Source of the DNA: Lingula anatina
Lineage: Eukaryota > Animalia > Brachiopoda
Assembly (NCBI GenBank): GCA_051362555.1
Contig: CM120640.1
Location: 57,638,788 to 57,702,787 of the forward strand
DNA length: 64,000 nucleotides
Reading direction: 5' to 3'
A program made the position numbers and the translations under genes. Of this stretch, positions 2,680 to 64,000 are shown piece after piece (position 1 is the stretch's first letter; each line of letters opens with the position of its first letter). The notes under the pieces were generated by a model. It did no database searches and was not told the DNA's origin. It saw nothing but the letters and a program-made list of their open reading frames with translations.

Positions 2680-2713
<34 letters not shown>

Positions 2714-37630: not shown

Positions 37631-37805
37631 TAGGCCCTACTGCGTGGAAATGATGAAATGATGGCTCTATTCCCATAGATTTTAGATCGATCTATCCCCG
37701 CGGGGAGTCTCACTAGATTACTTTCAGATAATCCGACTTAAATGTCCGTCCCGCCTACTACAAGCTGTAAGGGGATAATTAACTTTCGTGTCCGGCTGAC
37801 AGCTA

Positions 37806-39728: not shown

Positions 39729-41772
39729 TATTTAGCGTGAACCCCCAGGGAGTTAGGTCGATCTAAAGTAGGTCGATCTAATCTATGGAAATGGGGTGTT
39801 AGATCACTGTTAGATAGCACTATATGAAAAAGTAACACACACACACACACAAAGCTAGATAAATATTTTTTGTAATATTCCTTGATTGTCCATTCTTTTT
39901 AAGGCTGAAAATGCACTGGTGTATTTGATGTAAGCTGTCTATCTGAATATTTTAGAAAACATATTATTTCAGTAATTTTAGCCAGTCTACATGTATTTAC
40001 TTCAACTTTCGTGAATGGCTAGATCGCTGCCTAAATTACTTCACAAATGCATTTCAATAAAGAATATTCTCAATCTTTATTTAAGCAAAAGATCAGCAGA
40101 TAGTGTGGCGAGTTGAGTCGTTGAAAATCCTTTGCTTGCAAAAGTTAATTAAAAAAAACAGTTTGTTCCTAAAACAAGTTGTCATAGCAACAAAATTTAC
40201 GTGGGTACCTATCATTTTTTTATTTACGTCTGTTTCTGTATTGACCATATTGCACGTGCCATGGCATTAGGGGGAAAACAACACCTGGCACGGACAAATG
40301 GATAGATAAATATCTGCGTTATTTTTCTTCTTCTTCTATATGTTCCGATCGTATCGGCGAAGTTATCAACGGAACTACACGTTTTATGTAGCATGTTGTT
40401 TTATAGTCATTTATGGGCGTGTGCTTTAGCATCACAATGATGATCTAGGACAAAATGTCCGGGTGCTTGAGGATGGAGAGATTAAAAATCGATTTAGGAC
40501 CTACAGAACAACAAGTTTAACACGAAAAATGACTGGCGGAAATATATTTCAACGGCGAAGAGTGGCTGATATCAAAACTTTATATCTATCTCAATCTATG
40601 TCAGCATTTATGTGGACTACAAAAAGCGAATGTGTACGTGTAGACCCTTTTAGATATATTTTAGGGATATTTTCTACACGTCAAGAACTCGATTAAGGTT
40701 TTCTGAAGCACTACCGCACGTGTTCACAATCAGTGGCGCACCCATGCACTTCCTTGCGCACGTGTATTAAATGCAGGGTTTGGTTATCATCGGTTTGTAC
40801 AGGTCAGTCCCGTCGTAAATTTCGATCCACTTACGTCACGCTAACCTTAACCTGTACGAATCAAATCTAACAGTCTCTTAACACCAGCGCACTGTGCAAG
40901 CATGATCACGGTAATCTAAACTCCGTGACCTGGCCTCTGGTTGGTGTGATGACTGTAAACACCGTGTTTAAATATGCATGCCCAGTAGAGCGTCTTCATC
41001 CTGCCCAAGTACATGACAGTTGGCGAAAGAAATCGATGCGGAGTCCAGAATTAAATATTTTTCTCGAATGAATACTTCGTTCCTAATATTTTCTTTTCTT
41101 CACAGAAAATGTGTGGTGGTGGGCATTTTTAGCAAGCCATCTTGAAAGAATTCTATAGAAATATTTACAAGCAAAAATGAATTTTTCCTTTGGGGAAAAA
41201 GTTATTTTCTCCTACTGATAAATACACTTCCTTGCACTTTATTATGTTTTATTTCATTTTGATCTAATGGCCAAACGCTAATTAATATTTGGATACCCTT
41301 TGAACACACGTATTTTATTCATTTTCTGTAAGCCTAAGGGGAACACTCCTTTAATTTTGGATAGATTAGAACTGTTCATGGCATATTTTTCGGCCATTAA
41401 GTCTCCCCCCCCCCCCAAAAAAAAATCAATTTGCTTGGCCCAGAGAACGACTCATTATAGCGTATTTACGTCTAAGATGGGTCCAAACTTAAAGATGCAA
41501 TTTAAATGCAATTGCACTGCTCATATTTAAAAATAATACAAAAGGCCTTGGGTACTTGGTACACAAAAATTAAAAAAATACAAAATAAGACAAAGTTTCA
41601 CGGACTTTAACTGAATGTGCAAAAGACTGCAGTTGATATCATCTCTTTATGAGTTAGTAATCAAAGTGTATTGCCCATATTTAATCTGTATACGTGATAC
41701 ATTAAAGTCTTACTCCGGTGATGCCGCGATAATATCGAAGTTGGGCGTGTCGCACTACACGCCTACGATATT

Positions 41773-41775
41773 ACA

Positions 41776-41819
<44 letters not shown>

Positions 41820-41828
41820 CATACACAC

Positions 41829-41840
<12 letters not shown>
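41773..41840. repeat. (CA)n microsatellite
   Basis: Direct reading. Confidence 0.95.
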
Positions 41841-41860
<20 letters not shown>

Positions 41861-43278
41861 CTGCACAGCTACAACTAGCGGAGATAACGATTGTGCTTCA
41901 CGGTCGTGCCAACACAGAAACTATTCAAATGTTGAGGTGTCAAATGTTTTGGCCCGACAAGTTGGTAAATAATCCATCTAGAGTGGGCCTATCTTTCTTA
42001 TCATTTTACATGTACCGTACATGACAGTATTGACAATAGTTTTGTTGAACACATGTATCATGTATATCTAATCGAATGACAAACAAAATTGCTGTAAATG
42101 TGATTTTAATAGCGTAGATGAAAACCTAGATTAAAACTTCATGGTCTTCTTTTATGTCAGACTGACATTAATTTTTCCTAATATTATGCAGATGTTTACG
42201 GAAGGACCTGCAAAGAACATAATCATTGTCAGAGTAAGGGGGCACATTGACGAGGGGCGTTCTCTTCCTTAGCTTCTATAAAAATTGTATTTTTACAGGT
42301 AACCAAACTGAATGAAGCTCAACAAAAAAAGGTGACACATAGACACGTGTGCCCCACACGAAGCCCCCTTTCTTGTGCCCCAAATCCTGGTCGTTAGTGT
42401 GTTCTATTTCAAAGTTTTTTTAGAAATGATTGGCCTGCACGCCCACGCGATTCTAGCAAAGATAGCACGCATGCATGCACGCGCGCATCCGCAAGGAGAG
42501 TGAAATATGACCAGTGCTCGTTTTTCCTCGGTGAGCAGCAAATCTGAATCACTGTTTGGAGGCAATCTCTTCTTGTATCAAAATATGCCGATGTGTAACA
42601 GGTTTGTGGTCACTTATCTTTCCTCCTCTCGCAAGAATTTAAGTCCAACATGCCAATAAGTAAACCACGCATAAAGCCTTTATTTATGTATTTTTTCCAG
42701 TTTTTTAAGAACCCAGTATAATATGCATGGTGTACCACGTTACTTAAAATGCCCACCCTCAATGAGTCAGCAGTAGCAACGGTGTAAGATATTGAAGTTA
42801 CACATATCAAAATGATGGTCCGGAACAAACCACCTATACTTTTGTTCTTTTCCATTCATCACGAACAATTGTTTAAAATATAATAGCGCCTGCTCAATTA
42901 TAAGTCAGGAGTACAGCGTACCATGCGGGTCGGTGTATGCACATTGTAGGTAATTCTGCTCAAAGCGCACGGGTTTGTTCATATACTGGTGGCCAGAGCT
43001 CAAAGCCTGACGTCGCAGGTGAATTTTCCCAGGACGCTGCTCGACCCATTAACCACGAAGACGAGTATTCCTGGTCCATAATGACTGGGTAGGATAAAGC
43101 GCCTCAGGTACAAATGCTACCACCCGACATGCATACGGCTACGAGGCAACTTGGCATTTACCATTTAACGCTTATTTTCTATCAACTACTCTGCAATGAC
43201 TGACGGATGTTAGAAGAAGAGCCCCCCCCCCCCCTCCGGTCCTGACAGCCCGTCTTGTGCAACAGAATGAAATACATA

Positions 43279-43314
<36 letters not shown>
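43279..43314. repeat. (AAT)n microsatellite
   Basis: Direct reading. Confidence 0.95.
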
Positions 43315-43315
<1 letters not shown>

Positions 43316-44747
43316 TTTATTGACCACTATATGATATGAGGATACATTTGCAGGCTCACCAGACTATATTATTTACTGAATATACATGTATAAGGATGGT
43401 AAAAATGTCTGATGGATTTCAGGCCTGCCCCTTTCTCCCTTCTTAAGTTTTTTAAACGGATCGTATTCAGGGTTTCATTACATCTGTTTAGCTCCGCGAC
43501 AATATTGTATTCAATGTTTTATAAAGTTACTAAAACATATATAAATAACATATTCCATAAATTTGTAAAAAAAAAAAAAAAAAAACCACTTTACAACTTC
43601 CGCTAAATCGTATAAAAGATCAGAAATTTAATGTATGCAGTTTTACTTTACGTTCAGAGCACTACTGAACTCTTTAGAGTTTAACGTTTCAAGGCTACTT
43701 GGTTAAAAAGGTCTCAATGAAGCAAAATACTATCATTGCACGGGAGCTGGCTTTGAATTATAGTAATTTCTGTTACCAGTGCAAGGCTGCCCACGACCTT
43801 TGCCGATGGATATAGATCTAGACTTGACACTTTTGCTTGGATATGGTTGTGGACTCAGTCATATGCATGTTGTTTTGCTGCTTTAGAAAATTTTCCTACT
43901 AATTACAAAGATTACATATAACAAGTGATTTATTATATTGCACATATAAGAATTGTGCATCTTTCTTAGAAAAGCATCAGTCTACCTTCCTGCTATATTC
44001 AATGCACAGTTATCTATTGAAGATGCACGGATGTCACTGAATAGATAAGAGGACCAATACGGCGATGATTTTCATAGCTTATGCTTTATCATAAATCAGT
44101 AGACCCATTATCATATCACGCCTGTTTGATTTACCCCTAATAATTAAAGTTTACTTATACTGTTTACGGTCTATACGCTCTTGACTATTTTTGCGCTAAG
44201 CACGATGCAGAATATTAGCCTTTACGTACAAGAATGATTTACGTGATTACGAATAAAGGATTTTGAGCGGACTCTCAATCGTTTTTTTTTTTTTCAATTC
44301 TAAGTTTAAACAGCAATCTGTGGCTGTCTCGCTTTTGTACGGCAGAGCCGTCACGTCTTTAGTTGGTGCAGTCACCGGGTCAAGATGGATGACCGTGTGG
44401 GCAAGATATCAAATTCGTGTCCAGACACTTTAAGCACATTGTTATCACAAAAAATCGCATATTTTCTATAAATTGAACCGGTCAGCCATTACAAATCATG
44501 CTGCATGTGGCGTAGAACAGTCGTTTACTTGTGATGAATGTCTAAAATACAAAATGCTTAATGCAGATAATGCAAATGTGTATAAGGGTTGCATCTTTAA
44601 AAAAGTTTATGTTAATTCGACATGTGCACTAAATATCGATTCTTCATCAACTTTTTTTATAATGGTATGTCTCTTGGCGTAGAATGCACTTATGAGTCTG
44701 AAAAAAGAGAATGATCGATTCAGGCTTTTGTGGACTGGACATAGTTA

Positions 44748-44823
44748 ATAAATAAATATTTGTGCATTTCTTTATACAAATTATAATAAATAAATGTTTG
44801 TGCATTTTCTTATACAAATTATT
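44748..44823. repeat. Tandem duplication, ~37-bp unit x2
   Basis: ATAAATAAAT(A/G)TTTGTGCATTT..TTATACAAATTAT occurs twice. Confidence 0.8.
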
Positions 44824-45171
44824 AGGGAGAGTCTCTCTCTCTCTCTCTCTCTCTTTTCCATCGGTCACTTACATCATTGATACATGTATCACTTCTGCAT
44901 TCGCACACGTGTGGATACTCGTGCATGTAGGTACAGATGTAGCCTACATGTACATGTGCGTTTTTGCAATCAGACGCATACACTGTACGTGTACTTCCAA
45001 TAATTAAATAATTTTAAATGCAGAATATTCATGACAGAACTGACAGTCTGCCAAAAAACAGGCTAAATTTTGATTTAGGCCCTACGAGTAAAATCTTCAA
45101 TTTTCTGAAAGATAATTTCACACTTAAAATCATCGAAGTTTAACTGTCCAAAACGCAGTTATCCTTTAACC

Positions 45172-45269
45172 CACAAAGATGTGTGACATGAAATCTACAG
45201 ATGGTCATTCTGTAGATTTCAGGTCACACATCTTTGTGTGTGACATGAAATCTACAGATGGTCATTCTG
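45172..45269. repeat. 30-bp-stem hairpin followed by a direct copy of the first arm and loop
   Basis: CACAAAGATGTGTGACATGAAATCTACAGA-tggtcat-TCTGTAGATTTCAGGTCACACATCTTTGTG (one mismatch). 45237-45269 repeats 45180-45212. Confidence 0.9.
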
Positions 45270-45629
45270 AATTCATCTCTAAGTTGTTGTCATGAAGTCA
45301 TGCATTTCATAAGCAGCGCTTGTTGATTCTGTCCACTCTTTTTATCGGATTGATCAGATAACTTATTTTGACCAATCAGAGGCGCCCTTTAGAAGACTCA
45401 GGGCCATTCGAATGACCAGGGTTATTGTCTCTTTCGTGGTCACCACCTATTCTAAAAGAAAACAAAAACATATTTTAGGGAATGACAGATCTGTTTGATA
45501 CTCCACTACATGGACACACCCGCTGAGGGTAACAGTACATATTGCATTGTCTGTAGCCAACAGGCTTAAATTTTGCCGAACGTTGGTTGCAGGCGACGTG
45601 AAGTTCACGCAGTTCCAAGCTCCAACATC

Positions 45630-46002
45630 ATGGGAGGTGGAAGAGGACAGGGAAGAAATGTAGGAGGCTGCGAGTTAAGTTGGGTCACGGGTTTGGTCTT
45701 GGTGTTTCTTGCTGTAGCAGCATGCGTTGGCACTGCCGTCGTCACATATTTCATAACTTATGAATTTGTGAAAGATCGGTTACTTGAAACAAAACTTTCA
45801 GAATTAACAGCACACAGCGCACAAGGAGGAGAGTTCCCCAATAAAAAGAATTATCTAAAATTAGGTGAACTTTATGAAGTTGACAATGGGAGATCTTCGA
45901 TCAAACTCACTGCGGCCAGGTCTAGACTTGCTCGTCATGTGGAATCCGTTGACGGGGGCATTATGTCTTCCCAGACCAGCGGCAGTTCCGTGGGGAATAA
46001 TG
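45630..46002 (+). CDS. First coding exon: short cytoplasmic tail, signal-anchor TM helix and stalk
   Basis: MGGGRGQGRNVGGCELSW-VTGLVLVFLAVAACVGTAVVTYFITY. It ends at a G|GTGAGT phase-1 donor, in frame with the acceptor at 53502/53503. Confidence 0.75.
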
Positions 46003-49000
46003 GTGAGTGCCCCAATGTAATTTTTAAGTCAATGACAGTTTCACTTATTTTATTTCGCTTTTTTTTTTACAACATGATGGACAGAAAATTAAATACATAA
46101 TTGTTTATTCCGCAACGCCTCGAATGTTGTTGATAAAGATCACGTTTCAAATCGCTGTATCAAAAGAAAACAGCTGAGCGCTTTTGAAATAACAACAAAG
46201 AATATGATAAATATACCTGCCTGAATAAAATATATTCATTAATACTTATACAAATTACTTCGATAGTAACCTAACTAATTTGTCTGATTTATTCTAAATT
46301 AAGATGTCATATTTCATATCATACAAAAATGCTGTGACACGAAGATGATAATGGTTTAGTGGTCCATAATTGTATTTTACATCTAAGCAGTGCGTTTTGC
46401 CAATTTTCCTGCTACTATACAAAGAGATAAGAGCGGATTTAACATGTGCTAAAGATAGATAAAAGAAGTGATTATATTTTGTTAAGACTTTATAAACAGT
46501 GTCCTACACCCGGGTGTATAACTTAGTACCCACACTTAGTCCGACCAAGGAATTGGATATCTAAGATTGGGTTCCCATCCCTAGATCGATCTAACAGGAT
46601 CGGTCCATCTCCACGGGGTTTTTCGCTAAATTGATTTCAGCATGTGGCTTAAATGTCTGGGACGCCTACTAAAGCTGCTAAACGATAGTTAATTACCCCC
46701 TATCAACTTCAGTAGGCGTGACAGACATCTAAGCCGCTTAAATTAATTGCAATTAAGTGAGAATCCCCTTGGAGATAGTTCGATCCAAAGTTAGTACGAT
46801 AGTCTCTGGGAATTGTTTCTAATTCCTTGGTCTGACCAAGGAGTAGCATGCTGCAACTTCTTAAGCTTGGTCTGAAATAGCCCAAGATTTTTTAAATGGA
46901 TGATTCAGTTGACGTCCAATGATAGTTGCAAAGTGTCAAAAATATTATATTCTATATTTTATAACAATAACAAGAGCAAACACACTGGAAAAAATGAACG
47001 CGGGGTTTACACAATCACGTCTTGATAGTAAGTCACGTGCGACCAAAAAAAAAAACGCTGTGACCCGTGGCCATGACGTGGTAATTCCTATAGACATTCA
47101 AATGTAATAGAAATTAGATGAAACAGAGGAAAGCGATAAAAACACCGAATACACAGTTCACAGAATTTTGTTATTAACTGAGCGCATGCCGATTTTCAGC
47201 TTTCAGTGAACCGTTTGCAGAGTTAAACCCGGTACAGTCGATATTTTCCCATTTTCTTAATAGAATAGAAAGGTATTATAGATATTCGCCTATTTTTATT
47301 TTATGTGTTCCCCTTTTCTGTTTTCAGATTATGAGCAAAGCATCAATCTTGTAAGAGTTTTGTTCTTTTCTATAAGAAACCAGACTTGTTAAATACATTT
47401 CACACTGAAATGCAAATTTGACCATTGAAAATAATACAATTTAATACTTCTGCTTAAATCAGGAAGCCGCTTCTGACAAAACTAGGCCCTCAAAAGTAAA
47501 CTCTTTTCTTTTATAATCCCAGCGGCTACCTATTCGGTAAACCATACATTACCGAACCCCAGTGCGTCAAATAATGATATCAGGTAGTTCAAAAGACCAG
47601 GGTGTGCGACATTAACCACTAATAAGGTCCTATTTACAGGGTACTTTCTTGATAAGCCCTTGGTACCAACATGGTGGGTATGATGATTCCAAGATGATCT
47701 TTATACTTAAGGGAAGTTACATTTGTCACAGGTTTATACAAATATCAAATAATACTCTCCTTTCATAAGACAGAGTAAGGTATATCTTCACATTTGAACA
47801 AGTATAGCTGCATTCGGAGCTGACCCCTAGCTCAACAGTAAGAGCCTACTGAGCCTTAGGGAGCGTTCACATAAACCCATTGTATTAGCTGGATCGATCT
47901 GACTCCACGGGGATTCTCGCTAAATTAAGCCCACACGATAGTTTATTACCCCCAGCAGCTTGTGTAGGCGTGCCAGACAATTAAGCTGCAGCGACAAGCC
48001 CCCGCATAGTTAGATCGACCCAGCTGGTGCGAGGGGGTATGTGAACGCAGTCCAAACTTTTTAGTCACTGACAATACCCTATAGAAGGGAATGAAAATTT
48101 AAAGGGTGCGATCATAAAGAATTTGTCGTTCTAATGCGCACTAACTCTACGAGGACTCTCGCTGAATGCAGTCATATTAACAAACAAACACGCCTCTCCC
48201 TGGCGTTGAATATAGAAAAACTGGTGATTATACGCGTACGTTTGAGACAACTCTGATAATCTGAATGCCTTTAGCAAGAGTTGAGTTAGTGTGCCAGTAC
48301 GATAGATTCATTGTGAATGCACCCTTAGTGACTAGGGCCACACAGATCGCACATCAACATAGCTCTGTGTATGATCCTAATAGGCTACAGCTAGAGAAAA
48401 TAAGCTTTTATTCATGGATGAACTATTTGGCGTCCAAAACAGCAACGGCGTCAGTTTGTTTCCACTGTTATCATAATTTTTCTTACGTACCTCAAAGTTG
48501 CAAGAAACTAAATCTATGAAATTTGTGCAAATTTCTAGAAAAAATATTTCAATTATCACCTCAATTTTTTTTTTGTTTCAAAATAGATACTTTGTCGAAA
48601 ATTTTTCGAATGAAATATAGAATGCCTGTGAACCCTTTATCTGAAAGTAGAAAGGATGCGCTTTTTCTTTTTATTTCATACTGTATGGGCTCATTCACAT
48701 TGAAACTATGGGTCTACTTAGATCGATCCAACTCCACGGGGACTCTCGCTGAATATAACCAGTTTAACAGATTAACATGCCTCCTCCAGGCTTTAAGGCC
48801 GGTGATAGTAAAAGGACCAAAGTCATAGAAACAAAGCCCTGGGCTTATAAGTTTTTATAAAAAATTAAAACAAACTTCCCAAAAGGCCAATTAAAGACGG
48901 GGATTAAGTACAGTGTCCAACGGATGACGCTCTGGCGCCAATTTGAGGGGAAAAATGCCGTTTTCGGTATTGGGATTTTCTCTATAACCAAGACAGCTAT

Positions 49001-52000
49001 TCAAGTGATTCAAAAGGCCTCATAAAGCTGGGTGAAAGCACTTCAGCGCGGTACCAGGGAATTGTCTTAAACTATTTACTTTTGATTTTATCATCTTTTA
49101 CGTTAAATTACCCCATATTTCAATGGCTTATTCACTTCAAAAGGCGATATCTTTCAAACAAACAATTTTCTCTTAAACCCCTGATATCATGCTGTAGTCC
49201 ACATTCCTAACAACAATAGGTGCAACTTTTGTAACGATCGGTTGCTCAGATAGTGAGATATACTTGGCAGCGATTCACTTATCTTGTCAATATAGAAAGC
49301 TGTTAAAACAGCCAAAAACGTTCACAGGTTGGTTAACAGGGCTTATTAGTCAAATGCTTAGCTGGCAAATTTACCTGTTATCGGTTATACGATCAGCTGG
49401 AACCATTGCTTATTGTCATCTAAAAATATTTTGTTTGGGTGCTTTGAAGGGGCAGAAAATCGTGCTTTTGTTACATTTTCCGACCACTCGTTAGGCATGT
49501 AAGCGTGCCGCCATTTTGATTGACAGCTCTGGAGAGGGCCCTAGCCTAGTGATGCCCAGTAGGGTGTCAAGGATATGTAGAAGGAAGCGCTAACAAAGGC
49601 GATTACGTTTAACCGCAATTAAGAGGTGTGAAGTCGCATTTGAACGTTTCAATGGCTCTTCCTCGGCAATCGAGTAATTTTACCTGAGAGATTCCTTCTT
49701 TGTTATCGGCAAAGTGATCAGATAAAACTGTGTCGAGAGCAAGTGTCCGTCACTTGTGTTGATACGAGTTTTTTGACGGGTAACGCTGCAGGATTATTTT
49801 GCACGGCACTTGGTAGTCGTCAGATCAACGGAAAAATCCAGTGATTACTTCAGAGCGGTCTCGCTCAAAATGCCAGCTAAGATAAAGGGGAGACGCTCAG
49901 CTGCACAAGATTCAGCGGTAAAAGTGGCTGAGAGAAGGCTTTTGAATAAATATTTTATTTTTACACACATGACACTTAGACCCTATTTGCTTTTTACCTG
50001 CTAGCCTTGACTATTCTCGGGGTCTTTTTGTGATTTTCATTTTTGGACACTTGAACTCTTTCTTCCCGCTTGATCAGTGATTTTGAAATTGTTTTTCTCC
50101 AAATATCGCAAAATGCAAAGCCGCTAACATGCGTTTTTATTTTTATTGTTTTAATCATGCTGTCCAGCTTTGCTTGGATTTCTCTTGTTTGGCCATTCAA
50201 ATCACAATTTTTCGCGTGTCTCTCAAGCTCCATGATATCATATCTTGGAGAATAAAATTTTATTTTGTCAACATTAGATTTACCTTTTGCAAACGGCGAC
50301 CAACAATCATTTCCGGTTTCGTAACGTGTCGCAGATACGCTCGACGATATATATCGTAAAAATTAAAGGCTAGGCTAAGAGTATCCTTTTTTAGCTTTTT
50401 TTATTTATGTTTTTATCGATTTTTCTTTCATTTGTCAATTAATTTAGACGTTTCGATTAACTCTTTCACCCATTTATTAGGTATACAGAAATCAGTCATC
50501 CGACTGAACAAATAGGGCCGGTTTTCCCCAACCGCCACGCATAGGCCTTACTCTCAAAATTTTCCTTCTTTCCTCTGGAAAGGGACTTTTAACACGAACT
50601 TTTCTCTTCCCCATAGTGTACTAGCTAGACTTCTTCGCTGCTAAGCTGATGTAAGACTTATGACCTATTACCGCACACGTAATCGGCTTATAACTCATTA
50701 ACTGTGCTCCGACCCCCTCATGGCAACGGCCCTTAGTAACAGAGGCGTGGCTTAGTTGTCAGCCTGACTGGGGCGCGTGCCGGTTGAAAAACTCATCAAA
50801 AGACGCATTTTGCGATGCAAATTCATAAAAATTATTACATCCAACGTTAGATACTTTTTTGATTAATATAAACACACAAAAAACTCAAAAACACGATTTT
50901 AAGCGTATTTAACCCTATCACCGGCCTTAAGTATTAGCTTTAAGTATTATTTAATAGAAAGGCTGGTGATTATATTACAAGTACGTTGAAATCAAGGATG
51001 AGCCCTATGGCTTGAACGAAAGCTTATACCTACTTAATTAAGGGCGTATAATATTTAAGGCCGACTACTCAAGCGTGACCGAAAGACCTTGACTTCACTC
51101 CTAACTTATGTAACTTAAAACCGTAAAGCGAGCACACGCACGTTAATCATTATATAATGGTAAGTGCGTGACAACAATGTCATGCCTTACCAAACGTCGG
51201 TAGCGTGGTTGTGCACAAAGGGAATGGGGTATGGCCGTCTGATTTTTGTCTTATATCTTTTTAACTGCATACCATCGATCAGATACTTGAGCTGGATGTT
51301 TTCGTATCAAATGATATGTTTGTCCAATGACAGACAGTTTTTTCAACCGATCTCTTAAATTATTTTAAGAAAAATAATATTATGACCCCCACAGACGTCT
51401 ACCTGCTTATTTCTGCATAACAGGACACGTGTTTTTTCACGTGTCACCTCTGAACACCCATTTACTAGTAGATTGACAAATGTGATGGCCTGTTCCCGCA
51501 GGAGTTCCTTTAATATGTTTTCGTGGTTTTATTACTTTTAAATGTTCCTGTCCAGTAGGTTGTAGAGGAAATTGCGTTTGTTACTCATCTTGTATCATAG
51601 AAATCAGTTTTTTTTAACGGAGATATGAAAGATAGACAAACTAAGTTTTTTTATGGTGTTCGCTCCAGTAGGTTGTAAAGGAAACCGCGCTTGTTACTCA
51701 TCTTATATCACAGAAATCAGTTTTATTCTTTTACGGAGATATGAAAGATAGACAAACTTAGTTTTTATGATGTCCACTCCCACTTACTAATAAGCACAAT
51801 GATTCAATGCTGAAGTCAAAATTGTCATTAAATTGAAATAAATATCTCTTAACTGTTCCAATATTAACAGTGCCACAATTGTCATAAAAGATTAAATTTT
51901 CAGACAACATGTCTTGATTGTAATGATAAGATCATTAAATTGCAATTCTTTGCTCAATATTCTTTTTTCATGAGAATAAATTTATAAGTACTTATATGTC

Positions 52001-55000
52001 TATAATAACCACTCCCAAATGCATTTTACAACGACTTTGACAAGCGAAAGAAGACGTTGAAGCACCATCATCTTCAGTGCAGAATTAGCAGGTGAAACGG
52101 AAATATCGAGTGAAAATCAGTTAGATGCTTATAACATTAGTAATTTTAGAACAGCGCCCCCATTGATTTGATACGATTGAATCTTTGACTTAATAAGTTA
52201 ACGGTCTAAAACGAACTCATTTTTTACAGTCTGGCCTCATCAAAGCTGCTCTTACTGTATTTTTCAATATTTTGTGCCAGTATGAAAATGTACTACTGTC
52301 CTAATTGAAGTTACCTATATTCGGTAGTTTATTTTGCCGTTCACCATTAATTATCAAGCTTTCCTTCTCGTCCATCAGAGACCAAATAATAAATGTCAGC
52401 CAATCGACATGTACAATGTACATTAATGGCTCATTACACATTTGTCACGACCTCAGGTCGATTTTTTTTTTTTTTTTGCCCTTTAAATGTTCGCCAAAAT
52501 TAAGTTTTACTATAGGTAAAAGGAACTAATGTTAGTTGAGAATTATTGACCTTGTATGTTTGTGGCGGGTATACTCATCCCCCTTTCCAAGTGAAACAAC
52601 GTCGTTTGCACCCAAGTCTTTCTCTTGTCGTTGCTATTCAATTTCGCTGAGAAGGGTGGGAATGTCACTGTTAATCGACTGTTTACCAGTTTTATGAGCC
52701 GGTTTTGAAGACAACTCTTTTTCGCCACTATATGTTATCGGCATGATCATTCATTACAGGTATACTGGAATGGTCATTGTTCTGGAATCAGCTTTGGTCA
52801 TCGGAGCATTTCTTGAAGGTGGTTAAATCGAAAACTGGTGTTGAGCATTATAATCTTCTTCGTTCTTGACATATTAGTCATTTTGCCTTTGAGCAGTCAT
52901 TTTCTTGATAATGTAGGCTAGTATTGGTTCAGTCACAGGCCAAAGAGACATTGCCCTAATACCAAATGACATCCAGGTATATGGCATTCAATTTTTTATC
53001 AAGCCAAGTTTATCCTTGCTCGTAACTTACGTCTTATCGTTTAAAGAAATTAGAACATATTGGGGACTTATAAGGTTTTGTTGTTGCGACTCGAGGCTGT
53101 ATTAAAAGTACAAAGGAACATTAACTATAAATGAAACACAGAATTGGACATAGAGTCAAAATAATAAGATAATGAAAATTGATTCTAATCCTGGATCTTG
53201 CCCTGTAGGTTAAAATGGAGATGACGACGTTTCGACCTTATCACAAAGTCGTCTTCAAGTGAACTGATTCCAATTGTCACCTGTGTGTCCGTTTCAACGT
53301 ATATAATCGGATGGATAAAAAAATTCATTTTTAAGTGAAATATAACACTTTAATTATTAAAATGTTATGTCAAGTTCTTGTATCTAACTTCTTGTTTTGA
53401 AATACAGTCTAGTAATTATCCAAAATATTCCACCCTCCATGAAAGTAATGTTGCATATCGTTTTGCTTCATTAATGTTGTTTGGAATATTTCTTTACTTT
53501 AGTTAGGTCGGGGAGCATGACACAAATGACGGGAGCCAAGGATGCCAAGGGCAACGAATATATGGTGATGTTTACGGAAAATATGTTAATGGATGACTTC
53601 TATGAGAAAAACCCCATCAAAGAACTGTTTATTTCTGCTGGAAATAGTTTTCAGTCGGGCAGCTCTGTGCAGGTCTCATACTACAATGGCGCCACCTTGA
53701 TGAATAACACATACCATATTCCGCAGGGCAAGACCATTCGAGTGGACTTGTCAAACTTGGGTTTAGAACTCAAAGGATCTACAGTGGGAAGGAAAGGTAT
53801 CGAAATAAAGTCTGCCACAGAGATTGCTGTGTTTGTCATGAACAAAGACACATTTACCAGTGAGGGATACTTGGCCATCCCTAACGACGGATTGGGAAAG
53901 GCATATATTACTGTGAGCTATCCACCGTACCCAGAAGAGAAAGCATCTATGTCGGAGTTGGGAGTGGTCGCTCCTGAAGATGGTACTGTAGTTATGATGC
54001 AATTGCCAATGGTTCGTGATCTTACTGTCACTCTGAATGGACAGGAGTACTCAGCCGGGAGCATGATAGACGTATCACTGAACAAGTTCGATGCAGTCCA
54101 AATTCAAAGTGACAAAGACCTGTCTGGAACCTATATTACGTCCAATAAACCAGTAGCCGTCTTCAGCGGAAATGGCCGCACAGCAATTCCAAAAACCAGA
54201 GCTTCTCGAGACCATTTAGTGGAACAACTCCCACCCGTGGACTCCTGGGGGAACGATTTCGCCACCGTTCCGATACCAAGACGAACACAGGGAGACTATT
54301 TCCGCATCACGGCGGCAGAACCAAATACAAACATCAGGGTCCAAAGTAGCAGTGGTTCTGTTTTCACATATGCCATTTCCAAGGCAGGAAAAAGCATCCA
54401 GGATATCAGTAACTTCAAGTCAACCGACCTCTACCGCATTGTGTCAGATAAACCTATAATGGTAGCCCAGTTCGTCTCCAGTCAGCTGAAAGCAGGAGCT
54501 GCAGAAAAGGCGGACCCATCAATGATAATCATCCCACCCATACAACAATACAGCAGAGATTATTTCTTCGCTCTTCCCAAGGCTGCCAGTGATTTAAGTC
54601 TTGTTGCTCCCCCATTCAAGCATCAGGTTATGGTCGTAATAGCAGGCAGCAAGAGAAGCGGTCTTATGTTGGACGGGGCGCCAGTTCAGCTTCCAGCAGA
54701 TGCCATGTGGAAACAGATTCCAAACAACCCAGAAGGAGATCTTGAATCTACTAACCTTGTCGGAGCATTCATTGACGTACTCAATGAAGACGCCCATCAT
54801 AGTTTGCAGCACACCGATCCGAATGTCAGTTTCATGGCTATCATGTATGGATCCGGCGACAGAGAAAGTTATGCAATGCCCATGGGTATGGAGCTTGCTT
54901 CGATAAACCCCAATCCGGTGAGCAAATAAGGACTAATTTGGGCTTAATCGCTTATTAATATGTTTTTGCTTCATCTGACAGTATAGAACTGCGTTATGTA

Positions 55001-58000
55001 TTATATTCTGCATTCAATTCTTTTTTTTTTTTTTTTTTTGTAGGCGGGGGGAGTTATTTAGGACGCTCAATAATACTGTTACAAGTCCTTCTATACTGAT
55101 GAATCATGTTAAATTTTGTTATAATAAATAAAAATTGTTTCTAAAAACAAATTCAGAAACTTTGACATCCCGTTTTTTCCATATTTTAATTACAGATTTT
55201 GCCTGCCTCTGTTGATGTAATGGATGGCACAGGAAAAGAATATATGATAATGTTCACAGAGAACATGCTGATGGACTACTATCATGAGAAAAATCCAGTG
55301 TTAGAATTGTTCATTTCCCTCGCTAACAAAAGAGTCCCAGAAGCTATGGTATACGTGTCATACTATAACAATAGTCGCCTAATGAACGTGTCTTACGAAA
55401 TTATTCCCGGTGTTATGAAACGCATTGATCTCTCTAAAGCTAATCTAGAGATGATAGGGACTGGTGTGGAGCGAAAAGCAATTGAAATTAAATCTACTGA
55501 GGATATTTTAGTTTACGGTATGAATAAAGATACTTTCACAACGGACGGCTTTCTCGCCGTGCCCAGAAGCGGTGTAGGTAGTAATTATGTTACTATAAAC
55601 TATCCACCATATCCCGAAGATACCGCCTCAAGGGCAGAATTTGGCATAGCACCATTTGAAGATGACACCAAAGTGATCATCAAAATGCCGTCAAGAGACT
55701 CCATGTTTATACGTCTTAATGGTAAAACATACAGTGGTGGTTCCAACGTTGAGATAACATTAGACAAGTTTGACGCCCTACAGATCCAGAGTGGTAAGGA
55801 CCTGACAGGCTCTTACATAAAAACCAACAAGCCTGTGTCGGTATTTAGTGGTAACGGTCGCACAGCTATCCCGAAGTCTAGAGCATCAAGAGACCATCTT
55901 GTTGAGCAGATGTTGCCGGTTGAATCATGGGGAAAGGTCTTCTTGACAACGCCATTTCCAGATAGAACAGAAGGAGATTACATTCGCATCATAGCATCTG
56001 AGGCTGACACAGATGTTTACATATACCGCAACGATGGTATGAGCAGCTATTTCAACATCCGTATGTCCGGGGGAGACATTTCTTTCGATGGCGCTAATGA
56101 GCCTTACAGGATACAGGCAAGCAAACCGATTCTTGTTGTTCAATTTGTAACCAGCCAGCGCTCGGTTGACGACCCTGAAAGGGCCGATCCAGCTATGTTG
56201 GTCATCCCACCGGTTGAACAGTACAGTCGAGACTACACCTTTACACTGCCATCAGCAGCAAGCGTTGGGAGAGATGGTTCTCCATTCAAACACAAGGTTA
56301 TGATCATCGTACAAGAACGATATAAGGATGACATAGCACTGAATGGCCAGCCTCTTGGACTGTCACCCGATAGATGGCAAGACGTCCCAAGCAAGTCCAG
56401 TGATGATTTTCCAGAAAATGCCTTCGTGTCGACATCACTAAGTGTGACAGGGGAAGATTCCGTTTCCCACACCCTAGCCCATCCTGATCCTGATGTCACA
56501 TTTATGGCAGCACTCTATGGAGCTGGTGACAGGGAAAGTTATGCCCTGCCCATGGGAATGAAATTACGGCCAATCAATTCCGAACCGGTAAGTCAGCTGA
56601 TTTCATTGACTTATATTTTCATGAGGCTGTGTATTTTGTCAGTTTATCTTTCAAAAGTCCAGCATTTAGTAAATGTGTCAAACAGTTAAGCATTTACCAG
56701 TCAAACGAAAAATTGCTTTTCCTAAGGACAGCACTTTGGTCAAATGCCCGCGGGCCACTAGATTTCAAATCAAATCTAGATTTCAAATCTCTTATTTTCT
56801 TTTCCTGTATCTTAATTCCATAGTATGGAATCTTGAAGGCGCTGCGTTGACACTCCGAACGCTAAGCTTTTCCATTCCACGAAGCCCATGTTTGTCCATC
56901 TAATAACTAAAGCATCTAATAATCTTAAATATGGATTAAGAAAAGCAGTTTGAAATCATATCCTCTTCAAGAATAACACCTTGATTAATTCAATATGTAT
57001 ATATATATATGCATTTTTGAAGCACGTAATATTAGTAACTAATTCGTTTTTAATTTTTACTTATAGCCAACTCCACGCGGTAAGTCATTTTTAAGAAAAA
57101 CCTCTTTTATTAACTTTAAACCGAGAATGACTTTATAACATCAGGTTTTACACGTAAGCATTTCGAGAACAATTTAATTCACAGCGAAATGGAATTCTCA
57201 TTTGGGAAAATCAAGATAACATGTTGGTTTTGTATCAAGTCCTAAGACTTATTTTCGACTTGTTTTCGTCTCCTTTCTTTACCAAAACAAAAGGGCAGTT
57301 GCTTAAAAAGAAAATGATTTTACACTTTGTTAAGGTAAAAAGAGAATTTTGAATTGTAGCAATTCTTTCTTGTAAAAGTAAAAATGCATTAAGAACACAT
57401 ATATTGGGTTAACTGTTTTGCTTGTTTGACTTTTACCACCCCACCTCTGCACAGGCATGCTTGGCGGAGATGCTAGCGCTCCATCAGGCGAGGTTCCAAT
57501 ACCTATTCAAGACATCCGCTTGCCATCTTACGTCAAACCAGTTCACTATGGAATTATCATCCAACCTAATTTCTACAATAAGATGCCACACACCTTTGAC
57601 TTCAATGGCACTGCCACCATCACTTTCTCTACAACCAGGGACACGAATTCGATCACAATGCACTCGAGAGATCTGAATATAGATCGGAGTAGCGTCGAAC
57701 TCAAAGGACCAGATGGCATGGTGGAAGTAACAAACATCAAGGAAGATAAGCCGCGAGACCTCATTATTTTTGACACTGCCAGCATGCTAAACCCACAGAC
57801 GAATTATACTATAAAGATGAACTTCCGAGGAAAGATGAATTCTCAACCCATGGGCATGTTTTACATCAATCTTAATACCGACGATGAACCAGAGTATGTT
57901 TTTAACGTCGCTTGAGACAACCTCAGTATAATCAGTATAATCAGTATAATCCACTCTTCAGTTGTGTTCCACGGGAACTTACCTGAGGGGACATTGTCCT

Positions 58001-61000
58001 AAAATGATGGCTTTTTGAAAATGAGGATCTTCATTTTTTTGTTTATTTTTTTTTTCGGGTAACATTTGTGTATCATATAAATATATAAATCTGAATTGTT
58101 TCTTGATTGTTATAAAATGCAATCGATGTTAAAGAAACTTGATATATAACACAACTATGTAATTCCAATCTATACATGTATGTTGCATTGGTGTTTTAAA
58201 ATTAACGAGCATAACACAGCAGTTTATTTCATTTTATAAGGTATATGGTTTCCACAAGCCTCAAACCGAATTATGCCAGAAAGGTTTTCCCATCCTTCGA
58301 CGAACCAGGGATGCTGGCAACTTATAGCATATCAATTGTAAGAAAGGAACCATGGACGTCAATGTCTACCATGCCTCTTGAATATACAACTGAAAGGTAC
58401 CAGTTTATATTTCATACTATAATCATCTGGCGATACCCTATGCCCCATTGAAATAACCTTTAAGTTGAAATTAAAATTTGTAAAAGATTATTTTCAGAAA
58501 CTATTGTATTTTATGTTATCTTCATAAGCAGAGATTATTGAATCTGAAATATTAAATGTTACAGACCAGATGGAATGAAAGAAGATCGATTTGAAACCAC
58601 GCCCATGATTCCACCTTATGCTGTCTCTATGACACTTTCTAATATGACAAAGAATAAGGAATATAGGACAACAACTGGTGTAAATGTAAGTAGTACATTT
58701 TGCTCACGATCTTCTTATTCTAAAGTCAGTGGACATAATGTGTTTCTTATTTTCTTTAAGTCTTAACTCATTTTAATCAGGTATCATTTTCTCTATTATC
58801 TTCAGAACCCATTTGCAAGCCAATTAACTAAAACATTCAAATATCAGTTAGACCATTTGTATTTAGTCTTATTATAATACGTAACTGACTGGAATAAAAG
58901 CCCGTTGTCTTTTTAAAGGTCCGATTATGGACACGGGAAGACGCCCCAGAATTGATGCCTCGTCTTTTGGAAACCACCGGCAAAACCATTGAAACCTTGG
59001 AGACGGTTTTAGGAACGCCATATCCATATAAAACATTAGGTAAACTTGAATTGGGTTTTTAATACATGGTTTTATTAGGAAAACATGTTTTATCCCATTC
59101 TTGTCCTGTGTGTTTAAAAAGTATGAAAGACCATGTGTTTAAACTATTTGGACGTTCGCTAGAGAGTAACATATTGGAACAACATTTAAATGACTATTCA
59201 GGGAGATAATTATGTAATATCGATTTTGTGAAAATACATTATTCCAGATATATTAGGGATCCCCAACAGGCAACAATCAGTTGAAGGAACCTACTTGGAA
59301 CCAACTGCTAGTGCAGGAAGCGTAAACATCCCGGAAACGGAGTTAATGGCGTCTCGTACCTCACCAACGGACAGTCTAAGCCGCTTTGTGTCAAAGTATA
59401 ACAAAGACATAATTCAACAGGTGACTTAATTTCAAGTACACGCAATCATTCTGTGAAAAGCCGTAGTATAGGCTCAATTCTGCGGCAGAATGACAACAAT
59501 TGTTTGAATCAACTTGGCTCGAAGTAAAGAAAGGATGCATAGGGTCTGGGATAGCTTAAGTAAATAGAAGAAGATTTCGTATATTAACCTATAGTGTTCA
59601 GTGCATACATTGTTCTTTATCAGTTTTTTTTTTCAAACATGGTGGATTGAAATAAATACTTGAACTAAATGATTAGATAATGGGAACGAATATGTAGTCC
59701 AAATGGAGCGTAACTTTTTTTTCAATTTTTCAGTTGATTGGTACAAACGTGCCTCCTACGTGGTGGAATAGCGACTGGGTCAACAATGGTTTGGTCAGCT
59801 ACTTGGAAAAAATAGTGTATCCACTCTCGGGTGGACAGCAACTGGTATGTGTTTCAGTAGACGTCACGCGATTCACCTGTTGGTAAAGGACTACTTAAAT
59901 ATTGGTAAAAGGTTTTTTATGTGTTCAGCATGACGTACTCCTGTCATATGATTGATTCTTTTAAGCTTCAAAATGAACGAGCCAGCAAATTACATTACAT
60001 ATGGCGTGTTTGTTTTGCACGAAAATTTCTAATTTTTGAAAAATGGACAGCGTCTATGTGGTGTTTCTATTAGATTTTGCAATAATTATATATATACTGT
60101 TACAATTCACTTTAAAAGGAGGACCAGTATATCCTGCAGTCAATTCTACCGACCATGGAGGCCGATTCCGTCCTTGGGGTTCCCGCATTAAATACACCCA
60201 TTAACAACCCGACTATGATCAGCGATGGGCCGACACCTCTTCCCGGTACTAAGGTAAGTTAAGGGGTAGATGCAAAGGTATGTCATCGCTTTTGTTTGAG
60301 GTCAAAGTAACAAGGGGGGATGTTTCCTAGCTTAAAGGACAACTCCTTTAATTCTGAGGAACTGCAGCGACATATATTATCGAGAAGGAAATGGTAGCCA
60401 TGTCCCTGTGGTTACTGAGTATGTGCAGTTATTGTATCTTAAAGTACTTATTATTTTCATTATTATTTGTTTATATCATTTTATATAGGTCAACCTCTTA
60501 TATTTCTAGGGTGGAGCTATTTTACGCATGCTAGCGTCTGTCGTAGGAGAAGACACTCTGAATAAAGCAATTAAGGTAAGATTTTATCCTTATTAAGAGG
60601 CAAAGATATTGTATAGTTTTGTTGTTAGCTTTAATTATAGATGAATGCTTATCATTTATATATACAGTTTATTTTATAATCATCACATTAAACAGAAAAT
60701 TCTTCAAATATATTCAATGCAGAACTCACATGTGTTTGAATATCTTAAACTAGCGCTACGTAACAGACATGGCAGGGACATCAGCAACAGAGGAAGATTT
60801 TTGGGAAACGATTTCTGAGGTATGTGAAGTTTTCGTAAATTTCATATACAAAAAACTATTATTATATTATCGTTATTGTCAAGGCGTTAACGTTAGCAGT
60901 AAAATATTCCGTAATAATTCACAGTAGTTCCACAGCATGGGCGTACTGTATGAGGGGGTCTGGTGGCCTCGCCCTGTACATCGCTGTTGCCTTTTTACTT

Positions 61001-63957
61001 CTTACTTTATTTCAACCACCCCTAGCCATAAGCGCAGAAAGTAGGGTAATTCCCACAACTAGTTCTTTTCCAAACGGTCCCCCCCCCCCTTACACATACG
61101 CACACACATACTACTAAAGTTTGCTTCCTATGCCCCTGCACACTATTTTTTATCATTCATGGATTTAACCACAAGGGATATAAACACGGTGGAAATAGTT
61201 ATATGGTGTCCTCTATTATAGCAAGTAAACGAAGAAGGAAGAAGAATGAACATCAGAGACCTGATGACCCCTTGGTCTACACAATCAGGCTATCCAGTAG
61301 TGACGATTGACCGCTCAGCAATGAACAGGCCTCCGTCTGGTGGAGCCACCGTCTTCCAGAACAAGTTCACTGTCCAACCTGACAGCCAACCCTACGAGGC
61401 CGTGACGTCATCAGATGACGAGCCCAATGGGGAATTAGGAACAACTCCAATGAACAGGCAAGTGATCAGTAATTGGCAGGCTGAAGTATGGATAGTATTC
61501 TGTATACCTTATATGATAGTAAACAAATATATTGTACCCTATAATAAAGGATTATTATAACGTGTTATTTTAAAAAATGTAAATCTTCTTGAGACTCGAT
61601 TTTATGAAGATTCAAAATAACACATTACCAAATGTTATATTTTTTGTATTCAAGGCCAACATGGAATATTCCTGTTACATATATTACGAGTAGAAGTCCG
61701 AACACTGATAGCAGCAAGAGATTCTGGATGCATGAAAACAACGGTACGTGTTGTATCCTACAATTTATTAATCGCATCGTTTGTGTAAAAAAAGTTTGAC
61801 AACAATGTAAATGGGGGAATATGATAAATGAAGGCATTCGATATTAGACATCCATGTTGGTATTTTTAAAACGAATAATGCGAGCTGGTTTCTATCCATT
61901 ACTCTATGGAATTATTTTTTTGACATCTTATATATCTTTATTTAAACTGATATCAATTAAACGTTTAGGTACAAAAATGAGTCAAAATGTGAATATTTAA
62001 AACTAAACTTAATTTTTTTAGATAACCTTGTTAAGTCATTTTAATCGACGGTATATATATTTAAGTGTTTGGTGATCACTTTTTAATGTACAGAAAATAA
62101 ACCTATATTTGTTGATAAAACTTCAGCCCAAGGATGGAGAACAATAACTGTAATTTAAGTGACTGATTGAAGAAATCACACCATAAAATTGATAAAGCAA
62201 GCGATTAAATTATTTACTAGTATTTAGAATAACTTTTTTCTACTTTACCAGTAACAATTAGCGATGACGCTATGAACTACATCGGAGACAAAGACTGGAT
62301 TATTGGTAATGCTCAGATGCCTAGCTACTACCGTGTAAACTATGACATCGACAACTGGAACAATATAGTCGATCAGTTATTATCGGATCACGAGGTAAGG
62401 AATATTTAAGGAATATTTCGACTTGGCGACTTTTTATAACCTAATTTCATTATTGAGTTCCGTGTATCATTTTCTGCAACATATAATCGTTGTTTTAGTA
62501 ATGGGTTGTTGTCAATGCTATCACTGTACCACTATCTTATAGTCGAGCATCTTTGTAACATATATAATCGCATAGGTTGTGCTGTACTATTGATTATGAA
62601 GTTTTGTCAAGGCATATTGTATATTGAAAATGTTAATATCTGCATTAATTACCAATCTGCTTCTATTAAATTTTCATAATTTTACTATTTATTCATGTTT
62701 ATACTATTTTTCTCCTAGAAAATTGACCCCATTAACAGAGCACAAATCATAGACGATCTTTTCAATCTGTTGAGGTAGGTTGTGTATTACAGATTTAGCG
62801 GCACAAAGGTGAATTACTGGCAAAAAAAACTCCCCAATACGCACCTTAACCTGCTTTAGATACTAAACGTTCAATTCCAATTATACCATTTTCTTTTAAA
62901 TAAAACGCTGTGTTTAAAGCCGTTTTCTTAGTATTTTTATCTTTGCCCCCTCCCACTGACCAGTCTCTGTGTTTAATTTTGCTGTAGCATTGCAAACGAC
63001 GCGTTTTCATTTGCCAATTAACCCGGCGTGATGTTATCTCACTAATTCAAAGTAATGGATATCATTTGATCGATTCGTCTATAAAAAACATGTAACAAGG
63101 CCAAATATAATCATCATCACATATTTAGAAAATAATATCTAAACAGGCACATAACACATCGAGAATACGCCCTCTTCAGTGAACTGTATTATCATGTTTT
63201 GGTAATTCCAGAGCTAATGTTGCTCCAGTGGACGTCAAGTTAGTGATGCGTGGAACTAGATACCTCGGAAACGAGACCGCTTTCTTGCCCTGGGCGGTGG
63301 CACTCCGACATCTTAATAGCCTAGATTGTATGCTGAGGAAAACTGAGGGATACGGAGACTTTAAAGTAGTTTTTTTTAATTTAAATTTTTTTATTGACAA
63401 ACGACTAGCGTGACACCTTTAAAAGAGCTCAAAAACATTGTTTTATTTTGTGTCATCATTTTTCTGATTTACAAAGATTTATTCATCTGTGAACAGATAT
63501 AACTAAGGAAAAATATTCATTCGACGTGTCATCTCTCTAATGTCAATTTTTTTTCATTATCCTGCTCTAGCGTTACGTCGAGATGCTTATAGGTCCGCAG
63601 ATTGAAAGGCTTGGTTGGGAGGATGATGGAACAACTTCGAATAGGTAAGCGTGTCTCGCGTTTGTTATTCTTAGGCCGTTGTAGCTTGCTTTGAAATATT
63701 CAATTTCGCCATGAATTGTTAGAATTTATTATGCATGACAGAAATTCTAGTGAAATGTTTTGAAAAGCTGTTGTCTCTATTTGAAGTGTATAAATTGTAA
63801 ATGCATCATAAAATCATATCATTTACTTTGTTTCCAGATTGTTAAGACCACTCCTTTTGAAAGTGGCTATGAATCTGAACCACGCTCCGTCCATAGCTGA
63901 GGCACTACGTCTTTTTAATCAATGGACTCAAAAAGAAAATCCAGATACGGAAAACAC
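45630..63957 (+). CDS. Type II membrane protein: TM anchor + 2x IgGFc-binding domains + catalytically dead M1 (aminopeptidase N-like) peptidase + ERAP1_C-type domain; 3'-partial, >=1817 aa
   Basis: Exons 45630-46002, 53503-54917, 55196-56587, 57067-57079, 57455-57893, 58241-58396, 58565-58685, 58919-59039, 59248-59420, 59734-59844, 60119-60253, 60510-60575, 60754-60819, 61222-61457, 61655-61743, 62252-62394, 62719-62774, 63212-63365, 63571-63644 and 63838-63957 splice into one open frame of 5453 nt. APN motifs include DIRLPSYVKPVHY, ARKVFPSFDEP, KGGAILRML, WSTQSGYPVVT, YYRVNYD and NRAQIIDDLFNL. Confidence 0.85.
46535..46839. mobile_element. Family A-related palindromic MITE
   Basis: Outer inverted repeat CTTAGTCCGACCAAGGAATT / AATTCCTTGGTCTGACCAAG and an inner family A core. 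Confidence 0.65.
47859..48054. mobile_element. Family A-related MITE
   Basis: GCGTTCACATA...TATGTGAACGC inverted ends and the shared core. Confidence 0.6.
48104..48324. mobile_element. Degenerate MITE related to the 48687 element
   Basis: GGGTGC...GCACCC ends. Shares GGACTCTCGCTGAAT and CTGGTGATTATA with the 48687-51005 arms. Confidence 0.5.
48687..51005. mobile_element. MITE (GGGCTCAT TIR, TAT TSD) interrupted by the Kolobok-like element
   Basis: TAT-GGGCTCAT...ATGAGCCC-TAT. Arms at 48687-48796 and 50927-51005. Confidence 0.6.
48797..50926. mobile_element. Non-autonomous Kolobok-like DNA transposon (2.1 kb)
   Basis: Perfect 12-bp TIR GGCCGGTGATAG / CTATCACCGGCC flanked by TTAA on both sides. 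Purine-initial termini with a TTAA TSD fit Kolobok rather than piggyBac. Confidence 0.75.
51551..51780. repeat. Tandem duplication, ~113-bp unit x2
   Basis: TCCAGTAGGTTGTA...ACGGAGATATGAAAGATAGACAAACT starts at 51551 and again at 51664. Confidence 0.9.
53503..54917 (+). CDS. IgGFc-binding (FCGBP N-terminal-like) domain 1, single ~472-codon exon
   Basis: Family motifs ITSNKPVAVFSGN, DHLVEQLPPVDSWG, IVSDKPIMVAQF, DPSMIIIPPIQQY and YGSGDRESYAMPMGM. Donor CCG|GTGAG. Confidence 0.9.
55196..56587 (+). CDS. IgGFc-binding (FCGBP N-terminal-like) domain 2, single 464-codon phase 0-0 exon
   Basis: Paralog of domain 1 (IKTNKPVSVFSGNGRTAIPK, DHLVEQMLPVESWG, DPAMLVIPPVEQY, YGAGDRESYALPMGM). Acceptor TTACAG| and donor CCG|GTAAG. 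Confidence 0.9.
57455..63957 (+). CDS. M1 aminopeptidase N-like region (N-terminal beta domain, degenerate catalytic domain, ERAP1_C-type domain)
   Basis: Sixteen exons with APN-type sequence. The Zn-binding and GAMEN motifs are substituted. Confidence 0.9.
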
Positions 63958-64000
63958 GTAAGATAAAAAAACCTTCTCTCCCTTATAGTCTGGATGACTG

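Follow-up and report, generated by a model that had tools for sequence, protein, structure and literature searches.

A gene of Lingula anatina appears to carry an aminopeptidase of the M1 family that no longer works as an enzyme. We report that, in a stretch of 64,000 nucleotides (the window), an open plus-strand gene model contains an M1 module in which the zinc ligands, the transition-state tyrosine and the amine-binding glutamate of domain I are all replaced while the order of its domains is kept. The product is likely a non-enzymatic surface protein, predicted to start at a membrane anchor, to continue through a pair of IgGFc-binding domains and to end, farthest from the membrane, in the dead aminopeptidase. 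A dead M1 site is by itself ordinary, as animals have repeatedly made such proteins; the unusual part is the fusion with IgGFc-binding domains.

Gene model and domain structure

The window holds intron-rich genes in AT-rich animal DNA and contains no N. Our model runs on the plus strand from 45630 to 63957, in a gene that exits the window at its right edge, and its 20 exons translate into 1,817 residues with zero stops. Of the 19 introns, 18 have GT-AG ends and one has GC-AG ends, all of these being predicted splice sites. The M1 aminopeptidase-type module takes up 16 exons, stop-free from 57455 to the window edge, and its part inside the window comes to about 750 residues. The first-pass annotation had described its splice sites as intact and, as predictions without read support, all 15 introns within the module do show consensus ends (14 GT-AG and one GC-AG).

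Pfam assigns PF17900, a weak PF01433 (E 0.075) and PF11838 to the module, and once spliced it matches a profile of 80 bacterial PepN proteins with an E-value of 6.5e-47. That profile was made from the loci that gave a full protein (80 of 82), every one of which has both GAMEN and HExxH-x18-E (80/80). Taken together, Pfam by exon, the PepN profile and PDB matches place an N-terminal domain, the scaffold of the catalytic domain and an ERAP1-like C-domain colinearly and in the order of the M1 family. Specifically, the N-terminal domain begins with the exon at 57455-57893 (PF17900, E 5e-14; matches to ERAP1, APA and APN; Atlas 0.96) and continues at 58241-58396 (PF17900, E 1e-11; alignment to IRAP), and the end of domain I and the start of catalytic domain II lie at 58565-58685 and 58919-59039, placed by the PepN profile and alignment. 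Three exons with altered motifs follow at 59248-59420, 59734-59844 and 60119-60253. The profile assigns the remainder of domain II, and domain III, to 60510-60575, 60754-60819, 61222-61457 (with the GC donor) and 61655-61743. PF11838 and human APN place the ERAP1-like C-domain at 62252-62394, 62719-62774, 63212-63365, 63571-63644 and 63838-63957, and this domain would run on for about 180 residues beyond the window edge. PF11838 is found on three of these C-domain exons with E-values from 1e-6 to 2e-3, each of them singly under the curated cut-off. The GC-AG intron occupies 61458-61654 and is preceded by about 25 residues, acidic and of low complexity, that are inserted in domain III relative to PepN.

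IgGFc-binding domains

Two exons upstream of the M1 module each encode one IgGFc-binding (FCGBP_N) domain, IgGFc1 at 53503-54917 (PF17517, E 1e-65) and IgGFc2 at 55196-56587 (PF17517, E 8e-58), with scores of 222 and 196 bits against a curated cut-off of 25.6. They are 50.5% identical to each other, and their closest relatives, at 32-36% identity, come from Lingula, Watersipora and bivalves, which points to a lophotrochozoan host. In a quick tree of 29 domain segments from 19 of 46 proteins together with the two window repeats, these repeats are sisters (SH-aLRT 99) and are nested in a group made up of repeats from Lingula, Watersipora and one ENA protein (support 98). The two repeats agree at 73% of second and 32% of third codon positions, which indicates long purifying selection, and dS between them is saturated.

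With an input of 10 sequences IgGFc2 was modelled as an all-beta fold (pLDDT 87, pTM 0.90), and its single-sequence fold was poor (pLDDT 38). Searched with Foldseek, the model returned generic tandem beta-sandwich proteins only, with TM of at most 0.17 among the matches listed, and a PDB sequence search with IgGFc2 gave no relative. No M1 Pfam domain was present in any of the 46 long IgGFc relatives (813-2,320 residues) obtained by a word-based search, and VWD had no match among the 13 exons scanned with Pfam. The gene thus departs from FCGBP proper, described in the available part of its source as FCGBP_N followed by VWD-C8-TIL repeats (PMC4948705), where the window gene has its M1 module. 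From the same partial source, FCGBP_N combines with many partner domains in invertebrates and is linked to mucus, its function being given as unknown; its main text never uses the word "peptidase", and a supplementary figure of all architectures could hold a fusion with M1 (PMC4948705). In the paper listings that we searched, subscription papers aside, no IgGFc-M1 fusion was described.

Predicted membrane anchor, micro-exon and fusion

The first coding exon is predicted at 45630-46002 and would provide an 18-residue tail, a transmembrane anchor (residues 19-39) and a stalk. It starts at the first ATG after an in-frame stop, the anchor has a Kyte-Doolittle hydrophobicity of 2.47 over 19 residues, and the exon is the sole hydrophobic first-exon candidate in 40000-53502. 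We infer that it is joined to IgGFc1 over an intron of 7.5 kb. Between IgGFc2 and the M1 module lies a predicted micro-exon of 13 nt (57067-57079), with a TAG acceptor preceded by a pyrimidine tract and a GTAAGT donor. The phases run from a phase-1 anchor donor through IgGFc1 (1 to 0), IgGFc2 (0 to 0) and the micro-exon (0 to 1) to the phase-1 acceptor of the M1 module; IgGFc1, IgGFc2 and the micro-exon together make a symmetric phase-1/phase-1 cassette that is in frame with the module. A further candidate exon of 23 nt (47328-47350) was left out, as its phases do not fit. We predict a type II topology with, from the membrane outward, the stalk, IgGFc1, IgGFc2 and the dead M1 module.

The same phases permit a different product. 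Since the anchor donor shares phase 1 with the acceptor of the first M1 exon, the anchor exon could be spliced directly to 57455. A functional dead M1 protein would then be made mostly without the IgGFc domains, as an ordinary surface pseudopeptidase of the MNP-1 kind, and the IgGFc exons would be either a cassette used only at times or part of a transcript of their own. Such a product would be consistent with the missing M1 domain in the 46 IgGFc relatives and with the fact that no read joins the parts. Against this, the micro-exon gives exactly the phase change required and such sites are rare: at two of the three thresholds, 65,000 nt of background contained 0-1 of them, a count to be read knowing that the strictest filter misses the micro-exon itself and that the threshold was partly picked after the fact. 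Moreover, the IgGFc exons show purifying selection, carry consensus donors at their ends and do not encode a signal peptide. A first exon belonging to the M1 module itself was sought in 56588-57454 and none was found. We consider a mainly cassette-free product to be rather unlikely, although it is the strongest competitor of the fused protein.

RNA evidence

Eight of nine RNA runs assigned to the species by label, from three studies and unspecified tissues, were mapped, with 6-30% of each run read. In X1, X4, X7 and X8, mapped on 45001-64000, depth was 0 to 0.34 in the bins covering 53243-64000, one intron repeat excepted, and there was no exon-exon joint among those listed. In X2, X3, X5 and X9, mapped on 36001-56000, depth was 0 to 0.07 over the anchor and IgGFc exons. 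The latter four runs do match this genome, since the junction 36737-37496 of a neighbouring minus-strand gene is crossed by 68, 92, 4 and 9 of their reads, respectively; this control junction and the M1 exons were examined in different runs. The gene is without broad expression in the sampled runs, and restricted expression and recent silencing both fit this result.

Silencing would mean that a selected pseudo-enzyme was shut down too recently for stops to accumulate. The near absence of reads in eight runs from three studies is what it predicts, and under a neutral model the chance that the 1,817-codon frame stays open is 0.075 at 1% divergence, such that a very recent death leaves no trace. 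It does, however, require that the death of the gene falls within a short span of time, and expression limited to one tissue or one stage would account for the missing reads just as well; the runs, too, were read only in part. We hold silencing to be improbable, more so than a cassette-free product. On the preferred reading, the fused protein would be expressed only in some tissue, or at some stage, that is absent from the sampled runs.

Catalytic residues of the M1 module

The residues compared here have roles in M1 catalysis that are stated in the available text of one source (10.1101/2023.05.30.542994), and the available parts of three others also define the motifs (PMC7293236; 10.1101/849612; PMC5995572). 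In the exon at 59248-59420 the HExxH motif is replaced by KDIIQ (59403-59417), so that the two His become Lys and Gln and the Glu becomes Asp. The PepN profile aligns these positions with high posterior, and MAFFT likewise places KDIIQ on the HELAH of bacterial PepN, which bears out the replacement claimed in the first-pass annotation. Exactly 18 residues past the HExxH position, in the exon at 59734-59844, the third zinc ligand is Asn instead of Glu (AAT at 59785-59787), again as claimed; human aminopeptidase N and ERAP2 have WWNDLWLNEG where this exon has WWNSDWVNNG, and query position 18 corresponds to residue 411 of the 967-residue chain 9cam_B. This exon match is weak (E 0.04-0.06), but each of the 52 matches at E of at most 10 is either a named aminopeptidase or an AGAP entry from Anopheles.

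The loss of the transition-state Tyr motif likewise stands, as the profile puts Gly (60245-60247, in the exon at 60119-60253) on the Tyr of YxKG. In domain I, TSLK (58254-58265) aligns with TQFE of IRAP (E 2.4e-7), which upholds the reading of TSLK for TQF(Q/E) and replaces the amine-binding Glu by Lys. The alignment with human aminopeptidase N that had been proposed as a check was run exon by exon and recovered both the third-ligand change and the YYRVNYD motif of the module (E 9e-6). When the exons 59250-59420, 60119-60253 and 58919-59038 were searched singly against the PDB no relevant chain was returned.

It is the GAMEN region where the earlier description has to be modified. This segment has seven extra residues relative to PepN, and the EPTAS to which GAMEN had been equated is one of three possible registers. 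The profile puts the Glu of GAMEN on a Glu at 59298-59300 (GTyLE) with a posterior of 1-4 of 10, and MAFFT sets the motif a few residues earlier than the profile does. As read from these alignments, GAMEN is missing in every register and a single Glu of it may survive. The loss of the motif is thus sustained and its exact replacement is uncertain. The broader claim that all catalytic residues are replaced holds for the zinc ligands, the Tyr and the domain I Glu, and not securely for the Glu of GAMEN. Within the insertion, 59286-59306 contains two near-copies of 10 nt (9/10 alike) 11 nt apart, which may be left over from a small tandem duplication. An alternative exon with intact GAMEN or HExxH, which would have spoken against the first-pass annotation, was looked for and no usable one was found: none of the frames of the four introns in 59040-60509 contains HExxH, SYxKG or a motif like GAMEN or WLNEG, and a six-frame scan of the window has no such motif in the M1 frame.

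In sum, all four positions of HExxH-x18-E are altered, and HExxH, the third ligand, GxMEN, the Tyr and the domain I Glu/Gln, by which an active M1 enzyme is recognised, are each missing. Judged from these residues the module cannot form the zinc site, and automatic annotation would miscall it as an enzyme. It could still be argued that the module has weak or altered catalysis through its remaining acids, with the Asp as general base and possibly the GAMEN Glu, or through another metal. The change from Glu to Asp is conservative, the profile does set a Glu on the GAMEN Glu, and mouse APN in which individual active-site residues were mutated retained part of its activity when assayed indirectly in oocytes, according to the available part of that report (PMC3408045). 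In this module, however, three zinc ligands are replaced together (by Lys, Gln and Asn), along with the Tyr and the domain I Glu; in the accessible text of 10.1101/2023.05.30.542994, HEXXH-x18-E makes the zinc site and the change of Tyr to Phe alone lowers the kcat of PSA 1000-fold. We regard residual catalysis as very unlikely.

Selection versus decay

Importantly, the module does not have the pattern expected of neutral decay. In a neutral substitution model covering 752 stop-free codons, 15 intact introns and divergences from 0.01 to 1.0, the joint chance of five changed catalytic codons together with an open frame and intact introns peaks at 5e-9, with indels ignored, which favours decay. 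From this probability we infer that the module evolved as a pseudo-enzyme, and the claim that this is not a decaying pseudogene is well founded. Three of the five catalytic codons need two base changes, and the replacements are spread over four exons. Ordinary decay of a once active aminopeptidase gene into a pseudogene, or an artefact of assembly, agrees with the lack of observed expression and can otherwise be dismissed as extremely improbable, given the joint probability, the spread of multi-base replacements over four exons, a window with no N and an open frame that refutes it, save if orthologues at >98% DNA identity had intact motifs.

Conservation within the module points the same way as the model in that invariant PepN columns are retained about twice as often as variable ones (21/54 against 15/92 in domain I and 34/111 against 13/76 in domain II). 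Though unbroken, the module has diverged far: it scores 128 bits where the solved M1 chains of eukaryotes and archaea that were listed score 293-457, a comparison that used a two-sequence PepN profile and, for the window gene, a part of only about 750 residues. No orthologue was found by word-based homologue searches with two M1 exons (0/155 and 0/1 candidates), which is weak evidence, and a lone metagenome match (L001) was spurious as it falls in a secretin-like ORF. Based on its sequence the gene appears to have stayed under selection for a long period following the loss of catalysis, its present-day activity being a separate matter; the frame is open as far as the window edge, and a break could lie in the 3' end beyond it. 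The proposal that selection retains a non-catalytic scaffold is therefore upheld for the dead site and for past selection, and not for present-day function, where RNA reads are near zero, and the peptide-binding cavity named in the same proposal is a conjecture.

Comparison with known systems

Functional dead M1 homologues are already known. In the available portion of its description, MNP-1 of C. elegans is a membrane-associated M1 homologue, presumed inactive, that lacks three of the four zinc-site residues and is required for muscle and neuron migration and for a gut defence response (PMC10368266). The window gene resembles it in combining M1 homology with replaced zinc-site residues. The two differ in that all four of these residues are changed in the window gene, and in that MNP-1 has 781 residues and no IgGFc domain mentioned in that portion of the source (PMC10368266), compared with about 2,000 residues for the Lingula model. 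It is more likely that catalysis was lost independently of MNP-1.

In domain order the gene resembles the M1 ectoenzymes APN, ERAP, IRAP and APA, with which it shares a predicted type II anchor, PF17900, the catalytic scaffold and an ERAP1-like C-domain in the same order, whereas it lacks GAMEN, HExxH-x18-E and the catalytic Tyr, has an IgGFc pair in its stalk and reaches a far lower profile score. AgAPN10 of the lepidopteran Anticarsia gemmatalis is also an APN paralogue without complete GAMENWG or HEXXH-x18-E, but is a signal-peptide midgut protein with no IgGFc domain reported in the available text (PMC11554492). TAF2, a TFIID subunit, uses the M1 fold as a scaffold without the GxMxN motif; by the part of the source available, it differs in being nuclear and of pre-LECA origin, in often retaining HExxH-x18-E and in lacking an anchor and IgGFc domains (PMC6672047). 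The invertebrate proteins with tandem arrays of FCGBP_N (Lingula, Watersipora) share PF17517 domains at the 32-36% identity given above, and the described members are mostly secreted whereas the window protein is predicted to be anchored.

Proposed function

We propose that a duplicated gene of the aminopeptidase N type may have gained the cassette of IgGFc1, IgGFc2 and micro-exon in its stalk, and that catalysis would have been lost long ago while the fold was kept by selection. The IgGFc domains could lift the M1 module off the membrane and contact mucus or matrix. APN-type ectodomains form dimers, and the M1 module might serve as a binding head and dimer scaffold, in the way that MNP-1 acts without catalysis. 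Lys in place of both the amine-binding Glu and the first His suggests that the pocket may no longer capture free N-termini. A more specific version, which we offer tentatively and think doubtful rather than probable, is that exon shuffling in a lophotrochozoan lineage made a new surface receptor by placing two mucus-type IgGFc modules in an APN stalk and left, at the tip, a zinc-free and charge-reversed pocket, with lysines replacing an acid and a zinc ligand, that binds acidic ligands. In that case the gene would be the first example of FCGBP_N joined to an M1 pseudo-enzyme, and could help to find the ligands of FCGBP_N domains. If the fused transcript is real, a pseudo-peptidase and the widespread, mucus-associated FCGBP_N would be found in one anchored protein with a clear history of exon shuffling, and there would be a concrete protein for a study of ligand binding by both modules.

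Neighbouring genes and repeats

The 3' part of a gene for an immunoglobulin-domain membrane protein (PF08205, E 2e-5) occupies 1-5100 on the plus strand, and a synaptotagmin-like gene, coding for a hydrophobic N-terminal segment as well as C2 domains (PF00168, E 5e-12), lies at about 19090-26880 on the same strand. The minus-strand gene that provides the control junction is a multi-exon gene at 33970-37562, spliced at 36737-37496 in 4/4 runs, and reads like a nucleotide-sugar transporter of the SLC35A type; the one exon of it scanned with Pfam had no match. Each of the three frames of its exon at 36617-36739 contains a stop, which suggests a long leader with short upstream ORFs, and position 36657 is G for A in all covering reads. 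Also on the minus strand, 38380-38826 has a Lys-rich ORF and then, in another frame, a PHD-finger-like Cys/His pattern; it resembles the tail of a DNA-transposon transposase and is presumably a remnant. Dispersed repeats at 37660-37800, 39728-39800, 46560-46820 and 47880-51340 attract many RNA reads at 85-95% identity, and opposite-strand joints at these repeats suggest inverted-repeat elements.
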